This document shows positions 11,221 through 62,613 of a stretch of 64,000 nucleotides of DNA, piece after piece. The notes under the pieces were generated by a model. That model did no database searches and was not told where the DNA came from. It worked only from the letters and a program-made list of their open reading frames with translations. Source of the stretch: a virus (taxonomy: Duplodnaviria; Caudoviricetes); the IMG/VR virus record IMGVR_UViG_3300032327_000953, positions 96,001 to 160,000 of that record. One strand, given 5' to 3'. How positions within the stretch are numbered: position 1 is the stretch's first letter; the number at the start of each line of letters is the position of its first letter. The translations under genes and the position numbers were made by a program.

Positions 11221-11454
11221 ATGGCAACATACAAGAAATGGGCCGAATCAGAACTTGAGTTTATCAGAAATAATCAAAAGCTACTAAGTGATGATGAATT
11301 GGCCGCAAAACTAGGACAAATGACTGGTAATGGGGTAACAACAGCTATGGTTAGACGACAAAGACGAAAGCTTGGCATTCAAAAGCCCAAGGGAAGAAGG
11401 CCCAAGAACAGAGTTGTAGAATCTCCAATTAATCAAGAAGTTAGTAATACTTGA
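11221..11454 (+). CDS. Small HTH-type DNA-binding protein
   Basis: W..SELEFIR...SDDELAAKL....TTAMVRRQRRKLGI pattern. Divergent from the packaging operon and followed by a terminator. Confidence 0.6.
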   Translation: MATYKKWAESELEFIRNNQKLLSDDELAAKLGQMTGNGVTTAMVRRQRRKLGIQKPKGRRPKNRVVESPINQEVSNT

Positions 11455-15451: not shown

Positions 15452-16054
15452 ATGAAACTAAATAATACTATATCAATAACTCCTCCTCCTTTTACTAATA
15501 ATCTTGGAAAAGTAGTTTATCCAGATACATTGGTATTAGATAATTTAGATTTAGTATTTACTGATAATCCAATAAATAAAACAGTAAGTGTTAATCTTCT
15601 TGGAATACAAACTCCAATTAATCTTTGGTCTGGATCAGAATATGATCTTGTGGGGGACTGGACTCAAGCTCAAGCTGAAGATAAATTAACTGAAATATTA
15701 GGAGATGATCCAGCAGCATTTTTACGATCATTATTTCCAAAAACTTTGGAGGAATATCCAAATAATCCAGGAACAGTTCTGGTTAAAGTTCTAAAAAATC
15801 AAGGAGTTGTAATATCAGATAATTGTTCTTGTACAAAATATATCTTAGAAATGAACGAGAATGGTAATGATTGGTGTGTTGAAAATATAGAAAAAATAGT
15901 AGCTTGGCTCAAAGTAGAAGCAAATAATCTTAAAATTATATTCATAGATAGTGTTGCAAAACTATTAATTATGCGAGCAATTAAAAAATCTCGTAGACTA
16001 TTAAATAATCAGCCGGTTCCAACTAATGACTCAGATCTGGATATTATGGAATAA
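15452..16054 (+). CDS. Hypothetical protein with CxC motif
   Basis: 200 aa with RBS, containing DNCSC...MNENGNDWC...IVAWLKVEA. Confidence 0.65.
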   Translation: MKLNNTISITPPPFTNNLGKVVYPDTLVLDNLDLVFTDNPINKTVSVNLLGIQTPINLWSGSEYDLVGDWTQAQAEDKLTEILGDDPAAFLRSLFPKTLEEYPNNPGTVLVKVLKNQGVVISDNCSCTKYILEMNENGNDWCVENIEKIVAWLKVEANNLKIIFIDSVAKLLIMRAIKKSRRLLNNQPVPTNDSDLDIME

Positions 16055-16056
16055 AA

Positions 16057-16260
16057 ATGGTATATAATAATGAAGGTCCAATATATAGTATTTTGAGTGG
16101 CAAACCATGTTCTGGTAATTGTAAGGTACAATGGTATCAGGATGGAGGAGGAGGATGGGATGCTTTTGAAAATAATTGTCCAGCAGGATGTGATTGTGTA
16201 ATTCCTGGGGACTCTGGATATAATGATGAGATACGAACTGTTAACTGTGCAACAGTTTAA
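16057..16260 (+). CDS. Leader-family Cys-rich protein 4 (67 aa)
   Basis: Starts MVYNNEGPIYSILSGK. 6 Cys. Confidence 0.8.
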   Translation: MVYNNEGPIYSILSGKPCSGNCKVQWYQDGGGGWDAFENNCPAGCDCVIPGDSGYNDEIRTVNCATV

Positions 16261-16335
16261 AGTTTGCTGACGGCTTCTGTCGATAAAGTATGTGTGGAAA
16301 CTGGCCAATTGTTTTTTAACCCCTAGGAAAATTTT

Positions 16336-16632
16336 ATGAAAAAGATATTAGCTGGAATATTATTGTTTGTTGCAGGAAATGTTGCTCTTGGTGATGAGGG
16401 TTGGGTTCCTTATGTTTATCATCCTCCGGTTGTGGTTCAACAAGTTCCAGCGGCAGTTGCTGCTCCATACTATTATTATGTTCCAGTGGTAACTATGGTG
16501 CCTGTGGTTCCTCAGTACGTTCCTGTGACAAGTTATCAAAATGTTCTGGTGGAGCGTCGATACCACTGTTTTTTTAAAAGATATGAGGTACTAAGTGTGC
16601 CTCAGACTGTTTATGTTCCAAATCGGTACTAA
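16336..16632 (+). CDS. Secreted-type Pro/Val/Tyr-rich small protein
   Basis: Sec-like signal MKKILAGILLFVAGNVALG, then low-complexity VP/PY repeats. Confidence 0.6.
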   Translation: MKKILAGILLFVAGNVALGDEGWVPYVYHPPVVVQQVPAAVAAPYYYYVPVVTMVPVVPQYVPVTSYQNVLVERRYHCFFKRYEVLSVPQTVYVPNRY

Positions 16633-16741
16633 TAACTGGCTAATAAACTGGCCAATTTATATATGGTGGTCCCTATTGTGTTTGCACCACCGCGACTTGT
16701 AGTGAAAAATCCGTACCAACCTTCTAAAAACGAAAAAACCC

Positions 16742-16823
16742 CCTAAGTATATGGTAGGTAAGGACTTATGTCTTGTTGGACGGGCCGGGCTTGACGTAAG
16801 TTGTTTGGTACCAACGACTTATG
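16742..16823. repeat. 82-bp double-palindrome element, copy 1
   Basis: cctaagtatat-ggtaggt-aaggacttatg / 24-bp spacer / cgtaagttgtt-tggtacc-aacgacttatg. Confidence 0.85.
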
Positions 16824-16965
16824 TCGAGTCAGCGTAAAGTCAGCCGATTCGGCACGATATTTGCACTACAAACCTTACGAAAATGCAAGGAAACTTTTCA
16901 CTTGCAAATAAAGTTTGGGATGGTATAATGTCGATATAAGAATAAGAGAAAGAAAAGAGGAAAAA

Positions 16966-17187
16966 ATGGAAAATCTGAATTATGATCTGGTTTCTGACTG
17001 CTGCGGTGCTGGTTGCTCTTTTGAGACCGGCGAGGGTAAGGATAGAATCGGGATTTGTATGGATTGCAAGGAATGGTGTGGTGTGGTTGAGGATATTCCG
17101 GAAGATGAGGCCGACTATATTCCGGGCCTTGACGATGGCGAATGGGAATCCGATGAGGATTGCTGTGGTGAAGAGGATTTTGCCTAA
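16966..17187 (+). CDS. Small acidic Cys-containing early protein
   Basis: MENLNYDLVSDCCGA...CMDCKEWC...DEADYIPGLDDGEW. GAGG RBS. Confidence 0.7.
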   Translation: MENLNYDLVSDCCGAGCSFETGEGKDRIGICMDCKEWCGVVEDIPEDEADYIPGLDDGEWESDEDCCGEEDFA

Positions 17188-17191
17188 GCCC

Positions 17192-17221
17192 TTGACAAAC
17201 TAATAGCCGATACTGTATAAT
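17192..17221 (+). promoter_or_regulatory. Sigma70-type promoter with GCCGATA box
   Basis: TTGACA-18 bp-TATAAT with gccgata in the spacer. Confidence 0.8.
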
Positions 17222-17245
17222 AGCAACAACACAAAGGAAAAGAAA

Positions 17246-17467
17246 ATGAAAACTGCAACCGTGCGATCTGTTGGTAGGGTGTATCTGTTGAGCGACATTG
17301 TAAAGGCTATGATGGATCGATCCTATATTGGTCTGGTCGATCCTGCTGGGAAGTGCCATGTCGGTACGGTGAATGGTCTACAGATTGAAGATGGTAGTGG
17401 AAAGAATTATATCGTGACGATATACGCTAATGGTAAATCATCTAAGGTTTTTATCAAGGCTTCTTGA
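17246..17467 (+). CDS. Hypothetical early protein
   Basis: 73-aa ORF right after the promoter with AAGGA RBS. Confidence 0.65.
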   Translation: MKTATVRSVGRVYLLSDIVKAMMDRSYIGLVDPAGKCHVGTVNGLQIEDGSGKNYIVTIYANGKSSKVFIKAS

Positions 17468-17607
17468 AAGGATATAGTATGTCGATTATTGATTATGTTA
17501 TATTGTTTTCTCTAATTGGTTTCTGTGCATTTATCACCTATACTGTGCATGAGGTGGGTAACGCTATCCATTCCATGCTGAATGACTAACACACTAAGGA
17601 ATATAGA

Positions 17608-17925
17608 ATGACACACGATGAAGCTACTAAGATGGTACATGGTAAGACTAAGCGGAAATCTCGTAAGGTAGGTAACAATACATACGCTGAGATATTGCCT
17701 GATAGTAGCGTAGGTATTATGCTACATGGTACGTATGTGGTAAAGATTCATTCTGACAATAGTGCTACCCTTAACACTGGGGGATGGTATACTAGTACCA
17801 CTAAGGATAGAATCAATCAGTATTCACCTGTACGTGTGTATCAACGTAAGGGAGAATGGTATTTAGAGAATGGTGATGAGTATACTGATGGTGTCGTAGT
17901 AGCTGATAATAATCTGGTATACTAG
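17608..17925 (+). CDS. Hypothetical early phage protein
   Basis: 105 aa containing LNTGGW...TTKDRIN. Stop codon abuts element copy 2. Confidence 0.7.
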   Translation: MTHDEATKMVHGKTKRKSRKVGNNTYAEILPDSSVGIMLHGTYVVKIHSDNSATLNTGGWYTSTTKDRINQYSPVRVYQRKGEWYLENGDEYTDGVVVADNNLVY

Positions 17926-17926
17926 A

Positions 17927-18008
17927 CGTAAGTCCTTGTCCCTAAACGACTTAGGGCGAGGCCGGCGGGCCCACGTTGACGTAACTCCTTATGTGCCAAC
18001 ATGTTACA
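17927..18008. repeat. 82-bp double-palindrome element, copy 2
   Basis: cgtaagtcctt-gtcccta-aacgacttagg / 24-bp GC-rich spacer / cgtaactcctt-atgtgcc-aacatgttaca. Confidence 0.9.
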
Positions 18009-18143
18009 GCTAATGCAAACGGCTAGCAAACGGTGTGCCACAACACGCCACGAACCTTACGGTATTGTAAGGAAAGATTTTGCTTGCAAGCTCAAGAATA
18101 CTTTGGTATAATGTCGATATAAGAAAGAATAGGAGAAAGAAAA

Positions 18144-18392
18144 ATGATTACGCTCGACAAGGTTATGGCTGGTGTTCGACAGGTTTTTGGTAAGGATTCC
18201 CACAAGGTGCGTGTGATTCAAGCCGGATCGTCGTTCAAGGTTGAGCCGAAAGATATGGTTCACGATGGGGTGTGGATTCGTTCGGAAAATGGTATTGAAA
18301 ATCAGCTGAACGATCTGTATTATGACATGGTGTGCGAGGCTTGTGCCGACGAGGCTGATTACATTCCGGGCCTTGACGATGGGGAGTTTTGA
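18144..18392 (+). CDS. Early protein ending in DEADYIPGLDDGEF
   Basis: 82 aa after a promoter and GGAG RBS. Confidence 0.7.
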   Translation: MITLDKVMAGVRQVFGKDSHKVRVIQAGSSFKVEPKDMVHDGVWIRSENGIENQLNDLYYDMVCEACADEADYIPGLDDGEF

Positions 18393-18590
18393 ATGAGCGT
18401 TTTTACCTTTCATCGAATAGACACTCACGAATATATCGGTATGTTTTTTGGTAAGGATTGGATGGAGGCTCGAAGTAAGGCTAGTATAAAAAGTGGAATA
18501 CCAGTGGATGATATTCTACCTTGGGCTTTCAATACTGAAACCTTTCCCCTACCTGAGAGGGATGAGACTCCCCACTACCCATATGACTGA
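18393..18590 (+). CDS. Hypothetical early protein
   Basis: 65 aa, coupled to the upstream ORF. Confidence 0.55.
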   Translation: MSVFTFHRIDTHEYIGMFFGKDWMEARSKASIKSGIPVDDILPWAFNTETFPLPERDETPHYPYD

Positions 18591-18678
18591 ACCTTACGAC
18601 ATTGTAAGGTTGACAACATAAAATCAGTTTGGTATAATGCACACACAAGAGAACGATAGACCTAAGAGAGAAAAGAAA

Positions 18679-19053
18679 ATGAAAACCAAGTTCCCCATCA
18701 TCGAAAATGCCAAGCGTCAAGCCCGTATGATCTTCAAGGGTATCGCAGTGCCGATGCTCGTGGAAATCCCCGATGATAAGGTTGTGGACGATACCGATTA
18801 CGTCTACGGTGTGACCGATCAAAAGCGGTATGTCGTGACCGAAAAGGTTCTCAAGTTCAATCGTACCGCACTGAAGAATATCGGCAAGGCTCGTAAGGAA
18901 AAGGCTGATCCCCGCTATGTGGGGGGTGAGGATACCATGATCGTTCCGGTTGGCAAGCCGGGTAGCCGTGAACGTGTTGAAGAACTGACCAAGCAGTATG
19001 GTGCGGTTGCTCACCTTGAAATCAGCCCGTTCAGCTTCAAGGGGGAAGAATGA
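18679..19053 (+). CDS. Hypothetical early protein
   Basis: Start at MKTKFPII after a TTGACA/TATAAT promoter. GC-rich codons. Confidence 0.7.
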   Translation: MKTKFPIIENAKRQARMIFKGIAVPMLVEIPDDKVVDDTDYVYGVTDQKRYVVTEKVLKFNRTALKNIGKARKEKADPRYVGGEDTMIVPVGKPGSRERVEELTKQYGAVAHLEISPFSFKGEE

Positions 19054-19190
19054 ACGACTGTACACTAGTGTACGACGTTACACTAGAGACTGAGCGATGG
19101 GTAAAGAGTACGTATGTAAGGCTATATCCTAAGCTATACCTACCCATATGGGTGGGTACTGAACGAATATACAGGAAACGAAAAACTTGA

Positions 19191-19272
19191 CGTAAACCCT
19201 TGCTACTAAAGGACTTAGGGCAAGGGCGGCCCGCCGGGCGCGACGTAAGTGCTTATGCCTCAATGACTTACG
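19191..19272. repeat. 82-bp double-palindrome element, copy 3
   Basis: cgtaaaccctt-gctacta-aaggacttagg / 24 bp / cgtaagtgctt-atgcctc-aatgacttacg. Confidence 0.9.
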
Positions 19273-19371
19273 GCAACATAGCAAATGCTGTACCAAATCA
19301 TGTTAGAAATACCTTACAGTATTGCAAGGAAAATTTTTCTGCTCTACCCTATTGACAAATGACGATAATAG

Positions 19372-28412: not shown

Positions 28413-28869
28413 TTAAGTCTCCATGATCTAATTCCCAGTGGTGGTTGGGACAAAGAGCTATAAGATTATCTATCTTATTTATCTCTCCGACTGTTGCTGT
28501 TTTAGGGAATGATGAAATAGCTTTGATATGACATACTTCAAAGTGTTTATCGTACCCACAAATCATACAACATTCTGGTTTTCCAGACGATTTATAAATT
28601 TTTCTGGATAGATTTCTAATCCTAGAATTTTTTTGATATTTCCGAGTTTGGATAGCATCTCCATAAGTTATAGAATTCCAATCTTTATTCATTGGATTAC
28701 AATCTACGCAAAATTTTCTTCTAAAGAATCCAGTTTCTTTACCACAAGATGAGCAGTAATTGATTCTTTTTTTGCGTTTAGGTATTTTATTAGTGGTTTT
28801 AGCTGCACAAGATCTAGAGCAAAAATTTGGATTATTTGTTTCCTTGCCGCAATGTCTACAATTGATCAT
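28384..28869 (-). mobile_element. Freestanding HNH homing endonuclease 2
   Basis: CRHCGK...FCSRSC and CMICG...VCHIK...NLIALCPNHH. Its 3' end overlaps tRNA-Arg antisense. Confidence 0.85.
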
Positions 28870-28925
28870 ATTAATCTCCTAATAGAAAGTGAAACTACTT
28901 CTATATACACCAAAACATATTCGAT

Positions 28926-29007
28926 TCTAAATCCTTTGCCAGTAAGCACTTAGGGCAAACTCGGCGGGCCGGCCTTGTCGTAAGTCCTTATCTACCAACG
29001 ACTTGCA
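28926..29007. repeat. 82-bp double-palindrome element, copy 11
   Basis: tctaaatcctt-tgccagt-aagcacttagg / 24 bp / cgtaagtcctt-atctacc-aacgacttgca. Confidence 0.9.
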
Positions 29008-29035
29008 TCAAAAATAATTTTGTGAAGTTTTTCGC

Positions 29036-29064
29036 TTGACCTTGCCGATACTATAGTGTAGAAT
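29036..29064 (+). promoter_or_regulatory. Sigma70-type promoter with GCCGATA box
   Basis: TTGACC ttgccgatactatagtg TAGAAT. Confidence 0.8.
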
Positions 29065-29085
29065 CGGTAGACACAGGAGAAGAAC

Positions 29086-29790
29086 ATGAAAACTGCTGAT
29101 GGTAATGATAAGTTGGGTAAGGGTTGTATTGTGGTTTCGCGTCCGGTTGGCGATACTTGCCCGCCCGATTGCGACTATCTTGGTAATGGCTGTTATGCCG
29201 AAGCGACTGAGAATCAGTATAAAAATGCCCGCACTGCCGGGTTTGCTAATGTTATCACGGAGAAGAATAAAATCCGTGCCATGATTCTAGAAGCAAAGCG
29301 TCGTGAGAAGTCTATTCGCTGGCATGAGCGTGGCGACTGGTTTCTCAATGGCGAGCTTGATCTTGACTATGTTGCGAATGTAACGTGGGCTTGTGAGAGT
29401 ATTCTTGCCGATGGTAATACTCTGCCCGATATGTGGTTTTATACTCATATTTATGATTCCCGGCTTGTGAGTCTGGAAAAGTATATGAATGTATATGCTA
29501 GTATTCACGATGATAATGATATGGGTGAAGCACTGGCACAGGGTTTCAAAAAGTTTGCATGGTGTGATAGTGATATGAAGTTTGCTCCCAAGCGTCCCAA
29601 GAGCAAAGCAAAAGCCGAAGCATGGAGACAAGCACTGCCGAAGCTGGTTGTAATCAATGCTACAAAGTTTGTAGTATGTCCCGAAATCCGTCGTGGTCGT
29701 TCGGAAATCACTTGCACCGGCACTAAAGATAGTATATCATGTGACTTGTGTGTTCGTGGTTTAGGCAACGTATTATTCCCCGCCCATTGA
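29086..29790 (+). CDS. GP88-like (radical-SAM-like Fe-S) protein
   Basis: TCPPDC...GCYA cysteine triad, IRWHERGD, WFYTH, C-terminal CPE...C..C..C. Confidence 0.65.
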   Translation: MKTADGNDKLGKGCIVVSRPVGDTCPPDCDYLGNGCYAEATENQYKNARTAGFANVITEKNKIRAMILEAKRREKSIRWHERGDWFLNGELDLDYVANVTWACESILADGNTLPDMWFYTHIYDSRLVSLEKYMNVYASIHDDNDMGEALAQGFKKFAWCDSDMKFAPKRPKSKAKAEAWRQALPKLVVINATKFVVCPEIRRGRSEITCTGTKDSISCDLCVRGLGNVLFPAH

Positions 29791-29801
29791 AAGGATTTGG
29801 C

Positions 29802-30362
29802 ATGAGCTACGTTGGATTGTATGATGATGCAGGAAGTAAGAACGCTTTCTATATTATTAAGGACAAAAAGATTGGCCGTAAACGTGTGGGCTTCAAAGAG
29901 TTTGAGAATGAGCAAGAGGCACAGTTTGCCCATCGGGCTCAAAAGCATCTGGCACAGTTTGATTTGGCCCCTATGGTATATGGGGATGTTGGTATGATTC
30001 GTAGGCATGATGGTGAATTAACTTGTTATGGTTATTTAACCGAAGTTGCTCGACCTATGCCAGTATGTCATGACGATGATTGTGATGGTGAATGTTTTCA
30101 ATCGGAATGTAGTAATGGTATAACTATCTGTGAAGTAGTTTCCGATTTAAGTGAACAAGGTTTAGAATATAATGATTCCCACAAGGGTAATTTTGGTTAT
30201 GTTCGACGTAAGGGTTCATGGGTTCCGGTTGCTATCGACCTTGGGGTTGAGAGTTTTACTGAATGGGATGAAGATATTTATGGAGAGTTTGATTACGATG
30301 ATAACGATGGTTATGGAGAATGTAACTGTGTTCAATGTTGTATGTTTCGAGAGGAACAATAA
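29802..30362 (+). CDS. Protein kinase-like (APH/ePK fold) protein
   Basis: GFKEF (beta3 Lys), LAPMVYG, YLTE, catalytic-loop-like DSHKGN, DFG-like IDLG. Confidence 0.65.
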   Translation: MSYVGLYDDAGSKNAFYIIKDKKIGRKRVGFKEFENEQEAQFAHRAQKHLAQFDLAPMVYGDVGMIRRHDGELTCYGYLTEVARPMPVCHDDDCDGECFQSECSNGITICEVVSDLSEQGLEYNDSHKGNFGYVRRKGSWVPVAIDLGVESFTEWDEDIYGEFDYDDNDGYGECNCVQCCMFREEQ

Positions 30363-30592
30363 TGAGCAAATACTATATCAAATGTGGGACACTAGAACTA
30401 ATTTATTCCTGCAATAAATGTCCACGAGATGCTGCTATGGATGCAATATGGGAAACAAATGAAAATGATACGCTAGATGAACACTTCTATATAGATGAAC
30501 GTGGATATAAAGACTATGTTACTGCTGATGGACGAACAAAAGTATTACGCACTTCTCATATTCTAAAAGACGCAGGATGGAGTATTGAATAA
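30335..30592 (+). CDS. Hypothetical protein
   Basis: ORF downstream of the kinase gene; true start probably MSKYY. Confidence 0.55.
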   Translation: MLYVSRGTIMSKYYIKCGTLELIYSCNKCPRDAAMDAIWETNENDTLDEHFYIDERGYKDYVTADGRTKVLRTSHILKDAGWSIE

Positions 30593-30769
30593 TGTGGATT
30601 ATTATTGATGAGAAAAAAGTAAGACACTTGTGGGAATGTGCAGATTGCGAGGCTAGTGTTTATGTAGAACCTTGGTTCTATTCTGAAATGGGAACGCCTT
30701 TCTGTAAGGATTGTGAGAAAGATATGGAATATATAAACACGCAGATAGATATTGAAAAATAAGACTTGC

Positions 30770-30851
30770 CGCAAACCCTTGGTGTGTAAGCACTTAGGGC
30801 AAGCGCGGCGGGCCGGCTTTGACGTAAGTTGTTGCAGGATAAAGACTTAGG
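30770..30851. repeat. 82-bp double-palindrome element, copy 12
   Basis: cgcaaaccctt-ggtgtgt-aagcacttagg / 24 bp / cgtaagttgtt-gcaggat-aaagacttagg. Confidence 0.9.
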
Positions 30852-30939
30852 GAATTTCAGAAAAGTCCTAAAGTGTTGGGGGTGGTTGGCCGATAAATAT
30901 GGTATGAGAACGAGAAGGATATTGACAAGGACTGAGATT

Positions 30940-31299
30940 ATGATACAATGGATCGGGATTCTGATTACGATTGTGGGTTTGGCGTATACTGGTGTAAAAG
31001 ATTATCAAAAAGGTGATATTAAATTGTCCAGACTTCCACAAAAACAAGTCTTGACAAAACCAGTCTATCCGGTACAATACTGTCTGATGGCTTACGACCC
31101 TAATGTTGACAAGGTTTTTTACTTACACGAAAATGGACAATGGCATGATTACGCTCCACAACAACGACGATACCAGACCACGCCGCAACCATATCAAGAT
31201 CAAGGTGCGACCGCAGTGGCAAGTTCCTACGGGTCACAAGGAACACCGCAATACTATTATGGACAATCGCCCCAAGCGTCTGCGAACCCGATCCGCTGA
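30940..31299 (+). CDS. Membrane-anchored hypothetical protein
   Basis: MIQWIGILITIVGLAYTGV TM segment. C-terminus overlaps the next ORF in another frame. Confidence 0.5.
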   Translation: MIQWIGILITIVGLAYTGVKDYQKGDIKLSRLPQKQVLTKPVYPVQYCLMAYDPNVDKVFYLHENGQWHDYAPQQRRYQTTPQPYQDQGATAVASSYGSQGTPQYYYGQSPQASANPIR

Positions 31300-31333
31300 A
31301 AAGCGTAGGGCTTGCGACTATGGGGACTATTGA
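31145..31333 (+). CDS. Small basic protein
   Basis: MITLH...WQVPTGHKEHR...DNRPKRLRTRSAEKRR. Internal TTGACA/TACAAT promoter upstream. Confidence 0.55.
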   Translation: MITLHNNDDTRPRRNHIKIKVRPQWQVPTGHKEHRNTIMDNRPKRLRTRSAEKRRACDYGDY

Positions 31334-31349
31334 CTATAATAACCTGTTT

Positions 31350-31422
31350 GCCGATGTAACTCAGTTGGTAGAGTAGCAGTTTTGTAAACTGCCTGTCGTC
31401 AGTTCGATTCTGACCATCGGCT
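31350..31422 (+). tRNA. tRNA-Thr(UGU)
   Basis: gccgatg/catcggc acceptor; gcagt-tttgtaa-actgc. Confidence 0.92.
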
Positions 31423-31423
31423 C

Positions 31424-31494
31424 TCCGGGATGGTGAAACGGTATCACAAAGGATTTTGGTTCCTTTTTTCTACGTTCGAATCGTAGTCCCGGAA
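31424..31494 (+). tRNA. tRNA-Gln(UUG)
   Basis: tccggga/tcccgga acceptor; aagga-ttttggt-tcctt. Confidence 0.88.
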
Positions 31495-31505
31495 CTGTAA
31501 GATGA

Positions 31506-31577
31506 TGTCCGATAGCTCAACGGTAGAGTAGGCGGCTGTTAACCGCTTGGTTCTAGGTTCGAATCCTAGTCGGACAG
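31506..31577 (+). tRNA. tRNA-Asn(GUU)
   Basis: tgtccga/tcggaca acceptor; ggcgg-ctgttaa-ccgct. Confidence 0.92.
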
Positions 31578-31582
31578 CTTAA

Positions 31583-31671
31583 GGAAGAATGGCAGAGTGG
31601 TCTAATGCACCGGTTTACTAAACCGGAGATCCCTTAACCGGGGTCCGTGGGTTCGAATCCTACTTCTTCCG
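31583..31671 (+). tRNA. tRNA-Ser(ACU), unusual anticodon
   Basis: ggaagaa/ttcttcc acceptor, G discriminator, long variable arm, ccggt-ttactaa-accgg. Confidence 0.88.
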
Positions 31672-31672
31672 C

Positions 31673-31754
31673 TATAAATCCTTAACATATAAAGACTTAG
31701 AGCAAATCCGGCGGGCCGCGCTCAACGTAAGTTCTTTATCCATAACGACTTAGG
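31673..31754. repeat. 82-bp double-palindrome element, copy 13
   Basis: tataaatcctt-aacatat-aaagacttaga / 24 bp / cgtaagttctt-tatccat-aacgacttagg. Confidence 0.88.
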
Positions 31755-31811
31755 ATTTTCTAAAGAAATCACTTGACTCTTGACGATACATAGTGTAGAA
31801 TAGTCCAGCAC

Positions 31812-31887
31812 GGGGCGTAAGGTAAGCCGGTAGCATCCGTCACTCTTATAAGGTGATCATAGGTACGTTCGACTCGTACACGCCCTA
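31812..31887 (+). tRNA. tRNA-Ile(UAU), unusual anticodon
   Basis: ggggcgt/acgccct acceptor; tcact-cttataa-ggtga; T arm with ttcgact loop. Confidence 0.85.
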
Positions 31888-31916
31888 CTCGGAGGCTGAT
31901 GATTGAGTTACGAAAC

Positions 31917-31987
31917 ATTGGAGTAGTTCAACGGTAGAATGACGGTCTCCAAAACCGTAGATGAGGGTTCGATTCCCTCCTCCTTTG
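31917..31987 (+). tRNA. tRNA-Trp(CCA), acceptor stem with two mismatches
   Basis: acggt-ctccaaa-accgt; gaggg-ttcgatt-ccctc; acceptor attggag/ctccttt has two U-U mismatches. Confidence 0.75.
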
Positions 31988-31990
31988 CTT

Positions 31991-32062
31991 GGCCCCATTG
32001 TATAACGGCTAGTACGCCACCCTTTCACGGTGGAGATCGGAGTTCGATTCTCCGTGGGGTCA
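31991..32062 (+). tRNA. tRNA-Glu(UUC)
   Basis: ggcccca/tggggtc acceptor; ccacc-ctttcac-ggtgg. Confidence 0.92.
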
Positions 32063-32367
32063 TTTGTTTCTGCTAATCCTACGGATTTGGAAGCTGTGGA
32101 AGTAGTCAGCACGATTTTCTAAACCTTTACCACTTGACAAGTCGATAATAGTATGGTAGACTCTTGGAACAAGAAAGGAAACTTAACATGAAGAACCTTC
32201 GGATTTACGATATTGTCACCGAGGATGGTAGAACTCTGGCCGATATTCAACTATCCATGCAAGAGGATTTTGATTGGGCTGACGTATTCGACAAACTGTA
32301 TGATTTTACTACAGAAAATGTTGAAAGTTATTCCTATCAGGAAATCTCTGTAACTGAATAATAAGGC

Positions 32368-32440
32368 GGGCCTTTAGCTCAATTGGCAGAGCAAGGAGCT
32401 TTTAACTCTTAGGTTCGGGGTTCGAGTCCCCGAGGGCCCA
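32368..32440 (+). tRNA. tRNA-Lys(UUU)
   Basis: gggcctt/agggccc acceptor; aggag-cttttaa-ctctt. Confidence 0.92.
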
Positions 32441-32493
32441 CTTGACAGAGACAATTGTTGGTGTAGAATGTAGGAAAGAAAGGGAGTAAAAAT

Positions 32494-32667
32494 ATGAGAT
32501 ATGAAGATCATTATGACGGATACGATTATGACTATGATGAATTGGTAGAAAATACCGAGGATCTTGGTCTGGATGAAGAACCTTGGATGCAAGATGCCGA
32601 GGAAGATGATGAAGTTCCGTCTTATGGTAAGAATTATTATCCAAGTATTCAAGACGACGAAGATTGA
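32494..32667 (+). CDS. Hyper-acidic small protein (not in ORF track)
   Basis: MRYEDHYDGYDYDYDELVEN...IQDDED: 23 D/E in 57 aa. GGGAG RBS. Confidence 0.65.
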   Translation: MRYEDHYDGYDYDYDELVENTEDLGLDEEPWMQDAEEDDEVPSYGKNYYPSIQDDED

Positions 32668-32673
32668 TTTTTT

Positions 32674-32755
32674 GTGTGTGCTTCTAGGTGGGACTAGACC
32701 CTAATATATTATCCTTTCTTGTAACGGGTTGTTGGTTCAAATCCAACCACACACT
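32674..32755 (+). pseudogene. Degenerate or atypical tRNA-like element
   Basis: Perfect acceptor gtgtgtg/cacacac, D arm tcta/taga, T arm gttgg-ttcaaat-ccaac, but no foldable canonical anticodon arm. Confidence 0.55.
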
Positions 32756-32757
32756 TT

Positions 32758-33261
32758 ATGACTGCTTTTCAGGAAGAACTGGATGATTTTCGGCGTACCC
32801 CAGACGGTAAAATCATTCAAGGGGCTGCTCATACTAGCAAAATATTAAATCACAAGTATAGAAATAGTGTGATTATCAAGGCTATCTGTTCTCTGCGTAA
32901 GATTGAACAAGATTTTGATAGCATTGCTTGTTGTGGCGTAAGTGGTTTGATGGTTGTGCCACAAATTGCAGAGATTTTAAATAAGAATATTATAGTTGTT
33001 CGTAAAGGTGAGCGACGATATAGCGAATTCTTTATCGAAGGTGTTGCTCCGTCTAGTTATGTTATTGTGGATGATTTGATTTGTTCGGGTGGTACGGTTA
33101 AGCGTATTATGAATAATATTTATGATGATGTTCCGCGAGCAAAATGTATCGGTGCATATTTCTACATGGGTGAGGAGTGTGCCTACAACGCTTCCAATTC
33201 TAAACTTTTTGAGAAGCAGTTTGGGACGATCATCCTAAACCCTTACCAGCCAAAGACTTAG
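32758..33261 (+). CDS. Phosphoribosyltransferase-domain protein
   Basis: PRPP-binding motif VIVDDLICSGGT. Confidence 0.8.
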   Translation: MTAFQEELDDFRRTPDGKIIQGAAHTSKILNHKYRNSVIIKAICSLRKIEQDFDSIACCGVSGLMVVPQIAEILNKNIIVVRKGERRYSEFFIEGVAPSSYVIVDDLICSGGTVKRIMNNIYDDVPRAKCIGAYFYMGEECAYNASNSKLFEKQFGTIILNPYQPKT

Positions 33262-33315
33262 GACAAGGTGGGGCGGCCCCGGTCGCCTTAAGTCCTTATC
33301 TGTCAACAACTTACG
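33234..33315. repeat. 82-bp double-palindrome element, copy 14
   Basis: cctaaaccctt-accagcc-aaagacttagg / 24 bp / cttaagtcctt-atctgtc-aacaacttacg. Confidence 0.9.
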
Positions 33316-33343
33316 ACCTGCGGAATTTTTCCAAAGTTTTCGC

Positions 33344-33372
33344 TTGACACTGCCGATAATATAGTGTAGAAT
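33344..33372 (+). promoter_or_regulatory. Sigma70-type promoter with GCCGATA box
   Basis: TTGACA ctgccgataatatagtg TAGAAT. Confidence 0.88.
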
Positions 33373-33415
33373 CAGTGCATAAGAACGATTGAACAGCAAC
33401 ACGAAAGGGATGATT

Positions 33416-34366
33416 ATGGCTCATGCAGTTGAACAGATGATGTTTGTTGGTGCGACCCCGTGGCACGGTCTGGGCAATAAGCTCGACGAGGCTCCCACGG
33501 TTTCGGAGTCGATGACCGCTGCCGGTCTGGATTGGGAAGTCGGTCTGAAGGATTTGTTTACGGTGGACGGCCAGCCAGTTCCGGCCCGTGCTACCTATCG
33601 TAAGACTGACGACAGTATTCTGGGCGTTGTCGGCCCGCGATACACTCCGCTGCAAAACAGCGAAGCGTTTGATTGGTTCCAGCCGTTTCTGGACGCTGGC
33701 GAGTGCAATCTGCACACTGCCGGTTCGCTGCACAGCGGTCAGAAAGTTTGGGTTCTCGCCCAACTGAACCGCGATAACAGCGAGATCGTCAAGGGTGACG
33801 AAGTTTGCAAGTTTATCCTGCTGTCCAACAGCCATGATGGTACGACCGCGATCCGTGTCGGATATACTCCGATCCGTGTTGTGTGTGCGAACACGATGGC
33901 AATGGCCCACAGCAAGGGTAGTGGTTCCAAGTTGATCCGTATTCGTCACACACGTTCCAGCAAGAGCAATCTGGAAAACGTGCGAGATATTATGGATAAT
34001 ATCAATGCAGAGTTTGAGGCGACTGCGGAGCAGTTCCGATTTCTCGCGTCGAAGAACTTCAACCAGAATGACGTGCGTCGATACGTCAAGGTGATGCTCG
34101 ACATCGAAGGGACTGAGGATAAGGATATCAAGACCCGTACCCGCAACATCATGGATGAGATTCTCACCTTGGTGGAAGGCCCGAAGCAGAGTGCAACGGG
34201 TGTGCGTGGAACGTGGTGGGCCGCTTACAACGGCTTCAACGAGTACCTGAATTACAGCAAGGGTCGCACGACTGACAATCGTCTCGATTCTCTGTGGTTC
34301 GGCCAGAACGCCAACGATAACACGAAGGCTCTGGAAACCGCAATGAACTTTGCGAACGCCGTCTGA
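33416..34366 (+). CDS. DUF932-family phage/plasmid protein
   Basis: MAHAVEQM...TPWHGLG...AGLDWEV...LGVVGPRY.PLQN...TAGSL..G.KVW...NSHDG...RVVCANT...RHT. Confidence 0.88.
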   Translation: MAHAVEQMMFVGATPWHGLGNKLDEAPTVSESMTAAGLDWEVGLKDLFTVDGQPVPARATYRKTDDSILGVVGPRYTPLQNSEAFDWFQPFLDAGECNLHTAGSLHSGQKVWVLAQLNRDNSEIVKGDEVCKFILLSNSHDGTTAIRVGYTPIRVVCANTMAMAHSKGSGSKLIRIRHTRSSKSNLENVRDIMDNINAEFEATAEQFRFLASKNFNQNDVRRYVKVMLDIEGTEDKDIKTRTRNIMDEILTLVEGPKQSATGVRGTWWAAYNGFNEYLNYSKGRTTDNRLDSLWFGQNANDNTKALETAMNFANAV

Positions 34367-34390
34367 CCGGAGGGCTAAAACCCCACTCGT

Positions 34391-34472
34391 CGTAAGTCCT
34401 TTGCCCAAGGGGACTTATGGCGAGGCCGGCCGCGAGATTTCGTCCTAAGTTTAGTGCTGCCAAGGGTTTACG
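34391..34472. repeat. 82-bp double-palindrome element, copy 15 (last)
   Basis: cgtaagtcctt-tgcccaa-ggggacttatg / 24 bp / cctaagtttag-tgctgcc-aagggtttacg. Confidence 0.85.
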
Positions 34473-35150
34473 TCAATTTTGTCAAAGAATCTCATAAGTT
34501 CCCTATTCCCAAGGGGTTGCAATGACGATATAATGAATAGGACGCAAGTGCTTATCTGGCAAAGGGTTAGGATAAAATAGTAATAAGATTGTAATAATGA
34601 ATTGGATATTTTTCCATTTCTTATTTGTCTCGCCTAATCCAGCGGAATTACGGTCTTGGCGATAGTCAGCCGAAATACTGGTTATAATAACATAGCTCTC
34701 TGATCCTAAGTTCTTATGAGACAAGTAGTTGCGTCAAGAGCTAGGATGTGGTATACTTGACAGAGTAACAAGGATAGTAATAAGCTATGTAAAAAGTTTA
34801 TTATTATCATGAGAATGGAAATGTTAGGCTATTTGTTTAGTCTAAAGTAGTAGTCAGTGTAATCCTGGAGCCCTTTGTGATGCAGAAGGAAAGAATTATT
34901 GTGACTGATAAAAATAGACCAGATATTACCAGTGTCTATTGCCATCGGTTATTGGATGATATGGACTTTGATACATTGTACAATTTTGCTTATCAAATGC
35001 TGGTGGATAATAAGAGTGGATTGACTAATAAGATGTTGGAAGATCAAATTGTAGACTATTACCCTGACTTACTGGAGAATTAAATGTTAATTATTGTTAT
35101 AGCAGTCATTATGATTCTTTTGTTGGATTCTAAACGGTAAAGGAGACTTT

Positions 35151-35345
35151 ATGAACATTGATAAGATCATACGGAAATTTAAAAAGCTGGGTTTTGAGAT
35201 AGAGTATGGTGATGGTAGTATTGCTAAACTATATCCTCCTGACAAAACTAAGCCCTTCTATTCTTTGCATATTGGCGAGAAAGCTATTCATCCTCTTAGA
35301 CGTTTTGCTAAGAGTAATTGGGATATTGATATTAGAAATTTTTGA
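35151..35345 (+). CDS. HicA-like (dsRBD-fold) small protein
   Basis: IIRKFKKLGFEIEYGDGSIAKLYPP...SLH.GE resembles the HicA alpha-beta-beta-beta-alpha pattern. Confidence 0.5.
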   Translation: MNIDKIIRKFKKLGFEIEYGDGSIAKLYPPDKTKPFYSLHIGEKAIHPLRRFAKSNWDIDIRNF

Positions 35346-36239
35346 AAGGTATAAATATGCAAATAGAAATTACTAAGCAAGAAGCATGGAAACTAATAGA
35401 TGCTATTAATGCCTATATGAAAGATTATACTGTTACAGGAGCTGTTCATAAAACTTTTGACAATATTTCCAAAAAGCTAAAAGAAGTAGTAAAGGAATAA
35501 TATGTCTCTTAGAGATTTTAGAAATGTGGAATATTATCGTCTTAAAGATGATCATACTTGGGATATACAGAAAATGTTAGTTCCTGTAGAAGTTCCATAT
35601 GATCATTGTCTAGAATATATTTGGACAGAGTTAGTTGGTCTTGATCTTAGACATAATCTACAAACTATCGCCATATATAATTTTTCCAATGAAATTGTTT
35701 CTTTTTCTGACAATGTTGAAGCAGAGGAGGTGTGTACCTAATACTAGTCTGTGGATTTCCATGGTCAAGGTGGATTTATTGAGATACTAGGGTAGTAGTA
35801 AGTATTAGTATTCTTAGTAAGATATAACATCCCCCGACCTGCATAATAATTATTCTATTCCCCCACTCTTGTCAAAGGACGAATTTTTTATGAGTTGTAT
35901 GCTATTTCTTGCTTTTAGCATGTGTTTGTTTGCGGGAATGACAGATTGCCTAGTAAAACAGGGTCAGTAACTTTGTGACTTGCCACGGCTTGGGCCATGG
36001 ATACTATACGAACAGAGGTGTGTGTTGGTTGGCGAAAGTTTAATTTCTGGAATACTCTTGGTGTTTGTGATAGGAATATTTTCTTTAATCATGGATAGTA
36101 TTTATTCTAAGTCAGAATATTACTCTCCTAAATTAAAACATAAAGAATCTACTAAATACCAACCAGAGCCAACCTATAGGAATGATAGTTTATTCAAGGA
36201 TGATGAGTACGAATATTAAACCTTAACTAAGGAGATTTT

Positions 36240-36452: not shown

Positions 36453-36603
36453 CAATATAATCATGGTTGATAATCAAAAGGGTCAGGAAGAACTTGTTTG
36501 ATTATAGATCATAAAGAAAAGATAAATCCCCCGATGCCTCTTAACAATGCACACTTTCGGGGGTCTTTTCTTGAATATACATTTTTTACTCAAGGAGGAA
36601 CTT

Positions 36604-62206: not shown

Positions 62207-62559
62207 GGGCTAGTAAAGGTATCGACAGGTAAAATAGGTATAGATTGCATCGACTGGTTAATCGACCGGCCAGTTTAAAAGTCGATTAAAATTGTTAATT
62301 GGCGAAGTTTCAACTCTCGCTCTCGCTGCCTAATTAATTAGGTAATGAGTGGGGCGGCATGAGCCTTATTACCAAATCATGCTGACTCCGATATTCGGAT
62401 ATGGTAGTCCTACCAGACATAAATAGGAATGATGATTGTACTCAATCTGACGCAGATAATTCTGATAGCTTTGTTGGTAGTGTGATAACAATCAACTAAC
62501 GATGTAGAAGTTTATATTGATGTTTATTCTGGACGGCAGTTCGACTCTGCCCTAGTCCA
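62207..62559 (+). ncRNA. ssrA: tmRNA
   Basis: 5' gggctag taaaggtatcgac; 3' ggcag-ttcgact-ctgcc ctagtcc a with G3-U70; tag frame GGC GAA GTT TCA ACT CTC GCT CTC GCT GCC TAA = GEVSTLALAA. Confidence 0.93.
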
Positions 62560-62613
62560 CTTAATTTAGCTCTTGTCCATGTTTTGGTGTAAAGATATGT
62601 ACAGGAGACAACT

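Follow-up and report, generated by a model that had tools for sequence, protein, structure and literature searches.

In the early region of an uncultured freshwater phage, an 82-bp double-palindrome element recurs 15 times between positions 16742 and 34472 of the 64-kb stretch of DNA that we analysed, and divides it into small gene cassettes. The element has an invariant geometry, selection acts on its bases and not on their pairing, it lies between the gene end of one cassette and the promoter of the next, and most of the crossovers between related phages that chimeric copies reveal fall inside it. Considering these observations together, we give roughly even chances to the reading that the element is a protein-bound boundary or operator at the cassette junctions, doubling as a hotspot of homologous recombination. 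That a protein binds it, which protein this would be, and whether it would act as a roadblock, a repressor or an activator are matters that we infer from the arrangement described below.

Source genome and related loci

The stretch (hereafter the window) covers positions 96,001-160,000 of the IMG/VR record IMGVR_UViG_3300032327_000953 (Duplodnaviria; Caudoviricetes), a complete genome of 238,135 bp. All coordinates are window coordinates, position 1 being the first letter of the 64-kb window. Its left end carries the terminase and portal genes on the minus strand, and early genes run on the plus strand from approximately 11.2 kb. The block holding the elements gave no megablast match among 50,697 cultured phage records and the terminase shows ~24% identity to Bacillus phage terminases, so there is no close cultured relative to lean on. 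Relatives were collected by scanning IMG/VR with the exact pattern of the two inner arms of the element, which gave at least 118 stretches on at least 69 contigs, many of them of 100-244 kb. This set amounts to ~1 Mb of related loci and contains 479 distinct 82-mers, the 15 of the window counted in. Among the stretches listed there are at least 575 copies, always in arrays and with a spacing of 0.6-2.5 kb, and five complete relatives (229-244 kb) bear arrays of 16-25 elements.

Fifteen copies of a double palindrome

A first-pass annotation of the window had listed 15 copies, and all of them are present at the starts that it gave, each with a length of 82 bp. A position weight matrix (PWM) built from these copies separates them from the rest of the genome, with 78-113 bits at the 15 sites and -0.2 at the next-best place in the 238,135 bp. 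The matrix built from the 479 copies of the relatives set recovers the same 15 sites. Distances from one element start to the next range from 903 to 1844 bp, which agrees with the gaps reported before when these are taken as start-to-start distances. The statement that no copy lies outside the block holds genome-wide for the double element; it fails for single palindromes, whose series runs ~260 bp past position 34472. Using a PWM for one palindrome, we found 32 in the genome and none in the shuffled genome: 30 belong to the 15 elements and two are singles at 34543 and 34705, just past the last element. The copies are as follows.

16742-16823, + strand: element 1, PWM 79 bits (65 bits with the 479-copy matrix); the most degenerate copy
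17927-18008, + strand: element 2, PWM 106 bits; abutted by the stop codon of the open reading frame (ORF) 17608-17925
19191-19272, + strand: element 3, PWM 113 bits
20339-20420, + strand: element 4, PWM 89 bits; a chimera relative to genome G003
21458-21539, + strand: element 5, PWM 102 bits
22437-22518, + strand: element 6, PWM 97 bits
23386-23467, + strand: element 7, PWM 100 bits
24469-24550, + strand: element 8, PWM 84 bits; ORF 24288-24467 ends 1 nt ahead
25932-26013, + strand: element 9, PWM 92 bits; ORF 25677-25931 ends right at its start
27710-27791, + strand: element 10, PWM 105 bits; ORF 27335-27709 ends right at its start
28926-29007, + strand: element 11, PWM 101 bits
30770-30851, + strand: element 12, PWM 98 bits
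31673-31754, + strand: element 13, PWM 82 bits; directly adjoined by the end of a tRNA-Ser gene at 31672
33234-33315, + strand: element 14, PWM 96 bits; ORF 32758-33261 reaches 28 nt inside
34391-34472, + strand: element 15, the last of the array, PWM 80 bits
34543-34571, + strand: single 29-bp palindrome after element 15, single-palindrome PWM 27 bits; conserved in five relatives, just downstream of a weak promoter-like site
34705-34733, + strand: second single 29-bp palindrome, single-palindrome PWM 26 bits; conserved in relatives

Anatomy and geometry of the element

The whole element is dyad-symmetric and reads outer arm, 7-bp core, inner arm, 24-bp spacer, inner arm, core and outer arm. 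Four half-sites of the form C-G/C-TAAGTCCTT are laid out as two 11-7-11 palindromes, with arms that reach ~4 nt further than first described (TTGA / TCAA). Their centres are 53 bp apart, the equivalent of five helical turns. That the palindromes start 53 bp apart had been claimed for the window, and the related loci offered an independent test: from the 564 distances between neighbouring palindrome starts, 554 are exactly 53 bp, while three measure 52 bp, six 54 bp and one 48 bp. Across the 479 distinct copies, twenty-odd positions are conserved at 95-100%, and the 7-bp cores (reported before to differ in every copy, and indeed variable) and most of the spacer are free to vary. Almost no variation is seen in the inner arms, AAGGACTTAGG and CGTAAGTCCTT, on either side of the GC-rich spacer, and the outer arms are degenerate apart from a TAA and a TT that are firmly kept. 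A few mirror positions are consistently unlike and give the element a polarity, which matches the direction of transcription in 94% of the copies.

A short GC palindrome of lineage-specific form occupies the spacer centre (GGCCGGCC, GCGGCCGC, GGCGCGCC or A/T-flanked variants). Its likeness is 0.73 among non-orthologous elements of one contig, compared to 0.65 between contigs, a difference not seen for core 1 (0.34 within and 0.33 between contigs). Regarding the exact dyad centre, its 8-10 bp differ by lineage and tend to stay palindromic (for instance in loci L049, L062, L031, L112, L106 and L078), and the forms seen, CGCGGCCGCG, CGGCCGGCCG, GGCGCGCC and TTTT..GC..AAAA, resemble rare-cutter restriction sites. 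The lineage-specific centre may mirror what a co-evolving reader recognises, or it may result from local gene conversion.

Base pairing is not under selection

We analysed the mutual information between columns over the 479 copies, and the top pairs were all adjacent columns, with no compensatory change. Four arm-pairing models, which covered the local hairpins and both long-range pairings, gave Watson-Crick fractions of 0.686, 0.660, 0.623 and 0.766, versus 0.682, 0.684, 0.637 and 0.785 expected from column composition, and a scan of all column pairs detected no coherent helix. Folding energies were also close to those of column-shuffled copies, with -23.8 versus ~-23.5 kcal/mol on the plus strand and -23.2 versus ~-24.2 kcal/mol on the minus strand. 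When the copies were reduced to 117 cluster representatives, 74.1% of the pairs of the local fold were formed (73.9% after shuffling) and 73.9% of those of the long fold (74.6% after shuffling), and covariation was not significant. Loop and linker lengths are constant. An alternative helix, in which the end of arm 1 plus core 1 would pair with the beginning of the spacer, seemed possible on inspection of a few copies and was discarded, as it showed no excess pairing over the 479.

According to these results, base pairing is not under selection in the element. Since pairing equals the column-shuffle expectation in every fold tested, an RNA or single-stranded DNA hairpin (attC-like or terminator) is unlikely, and the same applies to the integron-like hairpin recombination suggested earlier. 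The best reading of these sequences is a double-stranded, putative protein-binding site. A paired site for a dimeric protein, as had been proposed, would fit the invariant spacing, the positions conserved at 100% and the lack of compensatory change. Besides, the element has the features of an operator: sequence-conserved inverted half-sites, fixed spacing, non-compensatory variation and a fixed relation to the promoter.

The element lies between gene ends and promoters

The stop codon of the upstream gene is exactly adjacent to the element in 87 copies and one base away in 35. In others it falls inside the element, which provides its own TAA at positions 3-5 (31 copies), a TAA at 18-20 (22 copies) or a TAG at 26-28 (37 copies). 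On the other side, a strong promoter follows within 250 nt in 387 of 463 copies (149 of 186 clusters). These promoters are of the sigma70 type (TTGACA, 16-17 bp, TAGAAT/TATAAT) and carry a conserved CGATA box in their spacer. For the distance analysis we collapsed orthologues to 186 clusters, and the distance from the element end to the -35 box peaked at 18, 28-29 and 39-40 bp, with minor peaks at 12, 33 and 44 bp and a best period of ~10.5 bp (R 0.44). The gap in between is UP-element-like (A-tract, T-tract, AAAG), and with a gap of 28 bp the element covers about -145 to -64. Promoter-like sites are enriched in the block (88 versus 45.5 +/- 5.9 expected), the 17 best being all on the plus strand. 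Intrinsic-terminator-like sites are not (13 versus 12.0 +/- 3.8 in the shuffle), and none was called at any element. The promoters found after the elements are given below.

16902-16929, + strand: promoter after element 1, TTGCAA-16-TATAAT, CGATA box after the -10
18084-18112, + strand: promoter after element 2, from the promoter scan
19352-19380, + strand: promoter after element 3, 12/12 consensus matches
20482-20510, + strand: promoter after element 4, from the promoter scan
21584-21612, + strand: promoter after element 5, from the promoter scan
22556-22584, + strand: promoter after element 6, TTGCAT-17-TAGAAT, read from the sequence
23497-23525, + strand: promoter after element 7, 29 bp past the element end
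24590-24618, + strand: promoter after element 8, 39 bp past the element end
26043-26071, + strand: promoter after element 9, 29 bp past the element end
27831-27859, + strand: promoter after element 10, 39 bp past the element end
29036-29064, + strand: promoter after element 11, 28 bp past the element end
30922-30949, + strand: promoter after element 12, from the promoter scan
31773-31801, + strand: promoter after element 13, 18 bp past the element end, ahead of a tRNA cluster that it is predicted to drive
33344-33372, + strand: promoter after element 14, 28 bp past the element end, predicted to drive the DUF932 gene
34506-34534, + strand: weak promoter-like site after element 15, TTCCCA-17-TATAAT, with palindrome arms on both sides

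Around 25 plus-strand promoters (17192-76353) share a CGATA(A/C)T box, located either 3-4 nt past the -35 or immediately past the -10. Among them, the 82-bp element is found only at cassette starts; the last four (66023-76353) lie beyond the 64-kb window.

The noncoding stretch that follows element 15 (34473-34880, ~400-450 nt) is conserved in five relatives. In addition to the singles at 34543 and 34705, it contains a weaker palindrome near 34493 and a promoter-like site with a CGATA box, which has palindrome arms on the two sides of its -35 region; arms also partly overlap promoter-like motifs of the stretch. A further CGATA box comes after a TGTGGTATACT motif. The stretch may act as a regulatory hub or encode a small RNA.

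Crossovers between related phages often fall inside elements

Cassette order is mostly collinear over six genomes, with whole cassettes inserted or missing and a different order in G004. Element 4 (20339) gives an example of exchange. Over its left ~60 nt, and in the gene upstream, it matches G003 at the element ahead of an extra module, P; from its right end into the gene downstream it matches the following G003 element, the one ahead of module D. The change from one to the other falls within 9 identical bp of the palindrome 2 inner arm. We found 27 chimeric triplets of this kind, not all of them independent, and the switch lies inside the element in 23, after it in four and before it in none. 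The switch intervals are scattered (15-27, 37-39, 42-48, 51-53, 59-62, 61-68, 68-69 and 71-73), mostly over positions 37-61. Elements travel with their upstream flank more than with the downstream one. Linkage between flanks is 43% across an element, compared to 61% across an equal gap within cassettes, and in the 92-97% identity class these values are 43% and 82%, respectively. Hence, elements are preferred crossover sites, though not the sole ones.

The cassette shuffling postulated before, by analogy with the mobile promoter early stem-loops (PeSLs) of T4-type phages, is thus borne out, as relatives differ by cassette insertions and deletions and by one rearrangement, with breakpoints in the elements. 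The crossover positions are scattered and not fixed, which argues for homologous over site-specific exchange. A role linked to the first-injected DNA, another earlier suggestion, finds no basis, since the five complete relatives have their record starts at different places with respect to the array, and the G005 record has its ends within the array, with a 123-bp assembly overlap. Module clustering had also pointed to tandem duplicate modules in G005 (O O O), and a direct comparison showed that these have only their junction sequences in common.

Recombinases, candidate binders and host genomes

No recombinase had been visible in the window, and this now extends to the complete genome for two Pfam families: neither Phage_integrase (PF00589, E<=0.01, with positive controls detected) nor Resolvase (PF00239) gave a match. 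Pfam scans of 40 window proteins showed no DNA-binding family except for a weak match to sigma70 region 2. One candidate binder is encoded by the first plus-strand gene of the early arm.

11221-11454, + strand: small helix-turn-helix-like protein of 77 aa; candidate binder only

This protein has no Pfam family match, and its nearest named Atlas clusters are GcrA (feature score 0.87, TM 0.62), sigma70 region 4 and HTH_38. It combines a helix-turn-helix like that of the GcrA N-terminus with a basic tail. Two other candidates were rejected. The DUF932 protein, whose gene is bracketed by palindromes, has no solved relative by sequence and no functional literature, and its family is widespread in elements that lack the site. 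The genes after the terminal palindromes, considered as a universal autoregulated repressor, lack conservation in G003 and G004, and their only matches are DUF7326 and a weak one to HicA.

We searched the pattern in prokaryote genomes (185,579 species, 596 Gb) and found it six times. Four hits are small array-bearing contigs of metagenome-assembled genomes (MAGs), i.e. mis-binned phage contigs, and the remaining two are chance matches in DNA of 65-67% GC. The element is therefore absent from bacterial genomes and does not belong to a dispersed host family of repetitive extragenic palindromic (REP) sequences or miniature inverted-repeat transposable elements (MITEs); a match to such a family was what the first-pass annotation had named as fatal to its proposal. 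As for the host, the GcrA-like protein may give a hint of it, GcrA being an alphaproteobacterial family; the labels of two of the four mis-binned MAG contigs read Alphaproteobacteria or Rhodobacteraceae.

A putative protein-bound boundary and its alternatives

In the reading of a boundary bound by a protein, the element would be a double-stranded site for a sequence-specific protein, most simply a dimer of dimers, which would turn each junction into a transcriptional boundary. The bound protein would stop or damp read-through from the upstream cassette, a function that we propose because the block has no excess of intrinsic terminators, and it may set the activity or timing of the downstream promoter from its helically phased upstream position. 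Once bound, the element may also stall forks and, being in addition the longest conserved tract at every junction, it would become a preferred site of homologous crossover. Crossovers at elements would then add, delete and rearrange cassettes between related phages.

Several observations weigh against this proposal. A small CCTTAC/GTAAGG hairpin with a T-run lies between element and promoter in five of the 15 copies, and in some of the relatives, so that in these places the element alone may not terminate transcription. The same promoter class exists without the element, in ~14 copies inside cassettes and downstream of the array (40-76 kb), with ~10 such element-free places further down the early arm, and strong promoters in the block are about twice as many as the elements. 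The element thus belongs to the cassette junctions of the block and is no general promoter accessory. One could also argue that the 10.5-bp quantisation of the distances merely counts one, two or three A/T-tract units (UP subsites). The information profile of the element has no 10.5-bp period by Fourier analysis, its dominant period being ~18 bp, the half-site spacing; binding to one face of the helix is a calculation based on spacings of 21-22, 33 and 53 bp, and we do not present it as a measurement. Finally, the genome has no Pfam match to HTH_3 (XRE-type), HU/IHF or ParB, and the 77-aa GcrA-N-like protein, the sole lead to a binder, has no link to the element and is a lead only.

A bolder form of this reading, which we hold to be doubtful, is that a protein on the four arms would provoke breaks or fork stalling at the GC centre, and that co-infecting phages would exchange, gain and lose promoter-bearing cassettes at these places. 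The elements would be the cis sites of a cassette system of a new type, and the array would then be a functional counterpart of integrons that works free of a tyrosine recombinase and also insulates its neighbouring cassettes transcriptionally. If the element were instead dedicated to exchange, an unrecognised site-specific recombinase or nuclease of phage or host would excise, insert and swap cassettes, as in an integron whose cassettes carry promoters, and any effects on transcription would be secondary. This would explain why the element is found only in the plastic cassette block and is lacking at promoters of this class in other places, why it comes immediately 3' of ORFs, like attC, and why its 11-7-11 layout, with one conserved and one degenerate arm per palindrome, resembles the core of tyrosine recombinases such as Xer. 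It would also suit the fact that 23 of the 27 chimeras switch within the element, with a concentration around its centre and in the palindrome 2 inner arm, the greater likeness of the centre motif, and not of core 1, within a contig (0.73 versus 0.65), and the GC content of the block (41-45%, with 30-34% in the flanks). Yet the complete genome has no Phage_integrase or Resolvase match, and the switch intervals are scattered instead of falling at one bond. Few of them reach into the 7-bp cores, the expected place of strand exchange by a tyrosine recombinase, and the majority are in the spacer and the inner arm of palindrome 2. Given that breakpoints are common inside cassettes too, that cassette order is largely collinear in the six genomes and that no attC-like hairpin is selected, we consider a dedicated exchange site unlikely.

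The position right after the stop codon, in the 3' untranslated region, raises the question of a function in RNA, where the transcribed palindromes would terminate transcription, protect the 3' end of the upstream mRNA or be processed by an RNase III-like activity, a part played by the stem-loops of PeSLs or of REP sequences. The self-complementary consensus folds at ~-24 kcal/mol (-18.5 for shuffled sequence), the element goes with its upstream flank more than with the downstream one, and some elements precede a small terminator-like hairpin. Nevertheless, such a role is improbable: pairing is at chance given column composition, with no compensatory change in any fold; only ~74% of the stem cells pair, and on the transcribed strand most copies have mismatches (A-C, C-A) at the middle of hairpin 1. 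Moreover, loop and linker lengths never vary, which is unusual for RNA hairpins, there is no U-tract after the stem, no terminator was called at any element and no Rfam family matches it. The lack of a phage-encoded binder of known family, together with the many strongly conserved copies in the earliest-expressed region, among ORFans probably involved in host takeover or anti-defence (DUF932, very acidic small proteins), could point to a decoy. With 30-50 high-affinity palindromes in each genome, and more as replication proceeds, a regulator or defence protein of the host would be titrated. A sponge would nonetheless need no fixed position at gene ends, no promoter phasing and no polarity, and the double element is absent from bacterial genomes (a search made for the double element and not for single palindromes in the host), which leaves this idea quite improbable. 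Finally, an intergenic, multi-copy, dyad-symmetric sequence of ~80 bp could be a selfish or neutral repeat of the MITE or REPIN type, spreading between intergenic sites without a function for the phage. Against this, positions conserved at 100% stand beside free positions in more than 479 copies, which indicates purifying selection and not decay; the element occupies one block in one orientation only, it is dispersed neither in the genome nor in hosts, and the genome has no Pfam integrase or resolvase match (DDE and HUH/RAYT transposases were not searched). We see hardly any chance for this last explanation.

Comparison with known systems

The nearest known system to these junctions are the PeSLs of T4-type phages, composite conserved junctions in hyperplastic, ORFan-rich early regions (Arbiol et al. 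2010 PMC2839356; Comeau et al. 2014 PMC4122927). Their stem-loop, often GGGG...CCCC and with five subclasses by its position relative to the promoter, has been shown to terminate transcription, and crossovers were mapped mostly in the promoter/Shine-Dalgarno and A/T region (PMC2839356, PMC4122927). Mini-circles that arise when neighbouring motifs recombine are a further mark of PeSLs. Both types of junction comprise an upstream stop codon, an A/T-rich tract, a strong sigma70-like promoter, a ribosome-binding site (RBS) and an ATG. In both, recombination at junctions leads to insertion, deletion or replacement of cassettes and to chimeric junctions, and no dedicated recombinase is known for either. 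When the PeSL definition is applied here, the promoter with its A/T tract and the hyperplastic ORFan region with insertions and deletions ending in the motif are found, and the terminator stem-loop at a variable position is not. In its place stands an 82-bp element with four half-sites, an invariant length and a fixed upstream position, in which bases are conserved and pairing is not selected. The two systems also differ in that the promoter class occurs here without the element as well, and in that crossovers are mostly inside the element.

The hrs (homologous regions) of baculoviruses are imperfect palindromes of ~28-30 bp, bound as double-stranded DNA by the dimeric immediate-early protein IE1, that enhance early promoters and are tied to genome rearrangement. 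The likeness lies in repeated imperfect palindromes of this size in a large double-stranded DNA virus; hrs, however, belong to a eukaryotic virus and are dispersed tandem clusters that act as distance enhancers and putative origins, without cassette placement or a paired 53-bp geometry. KorB OB sites of IncP plasmids, P1 C1 operators and the CIR repeats of phiC31 are single sites of 13-17 bp with known binders. In these systems a dozen transcription units or more share one conserved site, which is palindromic or nearly so and in some cases lies upstream of the promoter, with one reader encoded by the mobile element. The phage element differs by its paired 29+24+29 architecture at cassette boundaries, and no ParB or XRE-type protein was found in the genome. 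We regard hr/IE1, KorB, P1 C1 and the phiC31 c repressor as functional analogies for a duplex site that would be read by one regulator.

As in integrons, the array consists of small unrelated ORFs in one orientation, each followed by an imperfect dyad element (~60-140 bp in integrons), and its content varies. The position directly 3' of an ORF is shared with attC. Nonetheless, attC sites are conserved as a folded single strand and need IntI, and integron cassettes are mostly promoterless; here sequence and not pairing is conserved, the genome has no integrase match and each cassette has its own promoter. A tyrosine-recombinase core (Xer/dif-like, with arms of about 11 bp around a core of 6-8 bp) agrees in geometry, but it would exchange strands at fixed bonds bordering the core, and here the crossovers are scattered, mostly outside the differing cores. 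A serine-resolvase res site is contradicted by the lack of a PF00239 match, and we treat the identity of the 53-bp spacing with that of gamma-delta res sites I-II as a coincidence. REPs occur in hundreds of copies across host chromosomes and are linked to RAYT transposases, and some bacterial interspersed mosaic elements (BIMEs) are platforms for IHF and gyrase. BIMEs have, like the element, two inverted imperfect palindromes with a short linker after gene 3' ends; they are dispersed chromosome-wide, whereas the element is found in phages only, in one block. Finally, the G+C stem with an immediate U-tract that makes an intrinsic terminator is present at no element.

Hyperplastic early regions have so far been understood mainly through T4-type PeSLs, a promoter with an RNA-type stem-loop. 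Here, a very abundant uncultured jumbo-phage lineage shows a far more constrained junction of four half-sites and invariant length, the signature of a putative protein complex on double-stranded DNA. If its binder is found, it would be a new global regulator or insulator of phage early transcription, and the element a defined, portable boundary part for engineering tandem expression cassettes. It would also offer a test case of whether protein-bound sites focus recombination and so shape the trade in host-takeover and anti-defence genes. The element is, besides, a clean example of palindromy that does not imply a hairpin.

Content of the cassettes and other features

The cassettes carry between one and five small genes each, almost none of which has a known function; examples are DUF7249, Kyanoviridae Gp96-like and GP88-like proteins, the DUF932 protein and very acidic small proteins; tRNA clusters and one ORF-free stretch are also found. 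The GC content is 41-45% in the 16-36 kb block and 30-34% on either flank. Since the elements make up only ~7% of the length from 16000 to 36000, the cassette genes themselves are GC-richer, for which possible causes are a host-like codon use of the earliest genes, a separate cassette pool or GC-biased conversion.

For the protein of the DUF932 gene (33416-34366), all of the 8,000 closest-word candidates reached E<=1e-5, and the best 120 had 81-93% identity to it. Together with the more than 500 copies of the element and the at least 69 contigs, these 8,000 candidates indicate that the lineage is very abundant in public metagenomes. The gene at 20783-21034 is among the most widespread cassette genes (43 loci), and its extremely acidic, D/E-rich product of ~85 aa is reminiscent of DNA-mimic anti-restriction proteins. 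Five tRNA genes (31350-31672) end directly at element 13, and the promoter of the next cassette is predicted to drive four more (31812-32441). Hence, tRNA clusters form cassettes as well. The cassette after element 8 (24619-25310) starts with ~650 nt that lack an ORF led by an RBS, and the first 40 nt of its transcript are conserved in the relatives L103 and L014; it is probably a structured noncoding RNA.

In an Rfam search no family matched the element; tRNAs, a tmRNA and a borderline abiF outside the block were detected. The tmRNA gene is full-length (62207-62562, 89 bits), and the abiF RNA match, downstream of the array at 36528-36564, scored 38.3 bits, just over the gathering score of 37.

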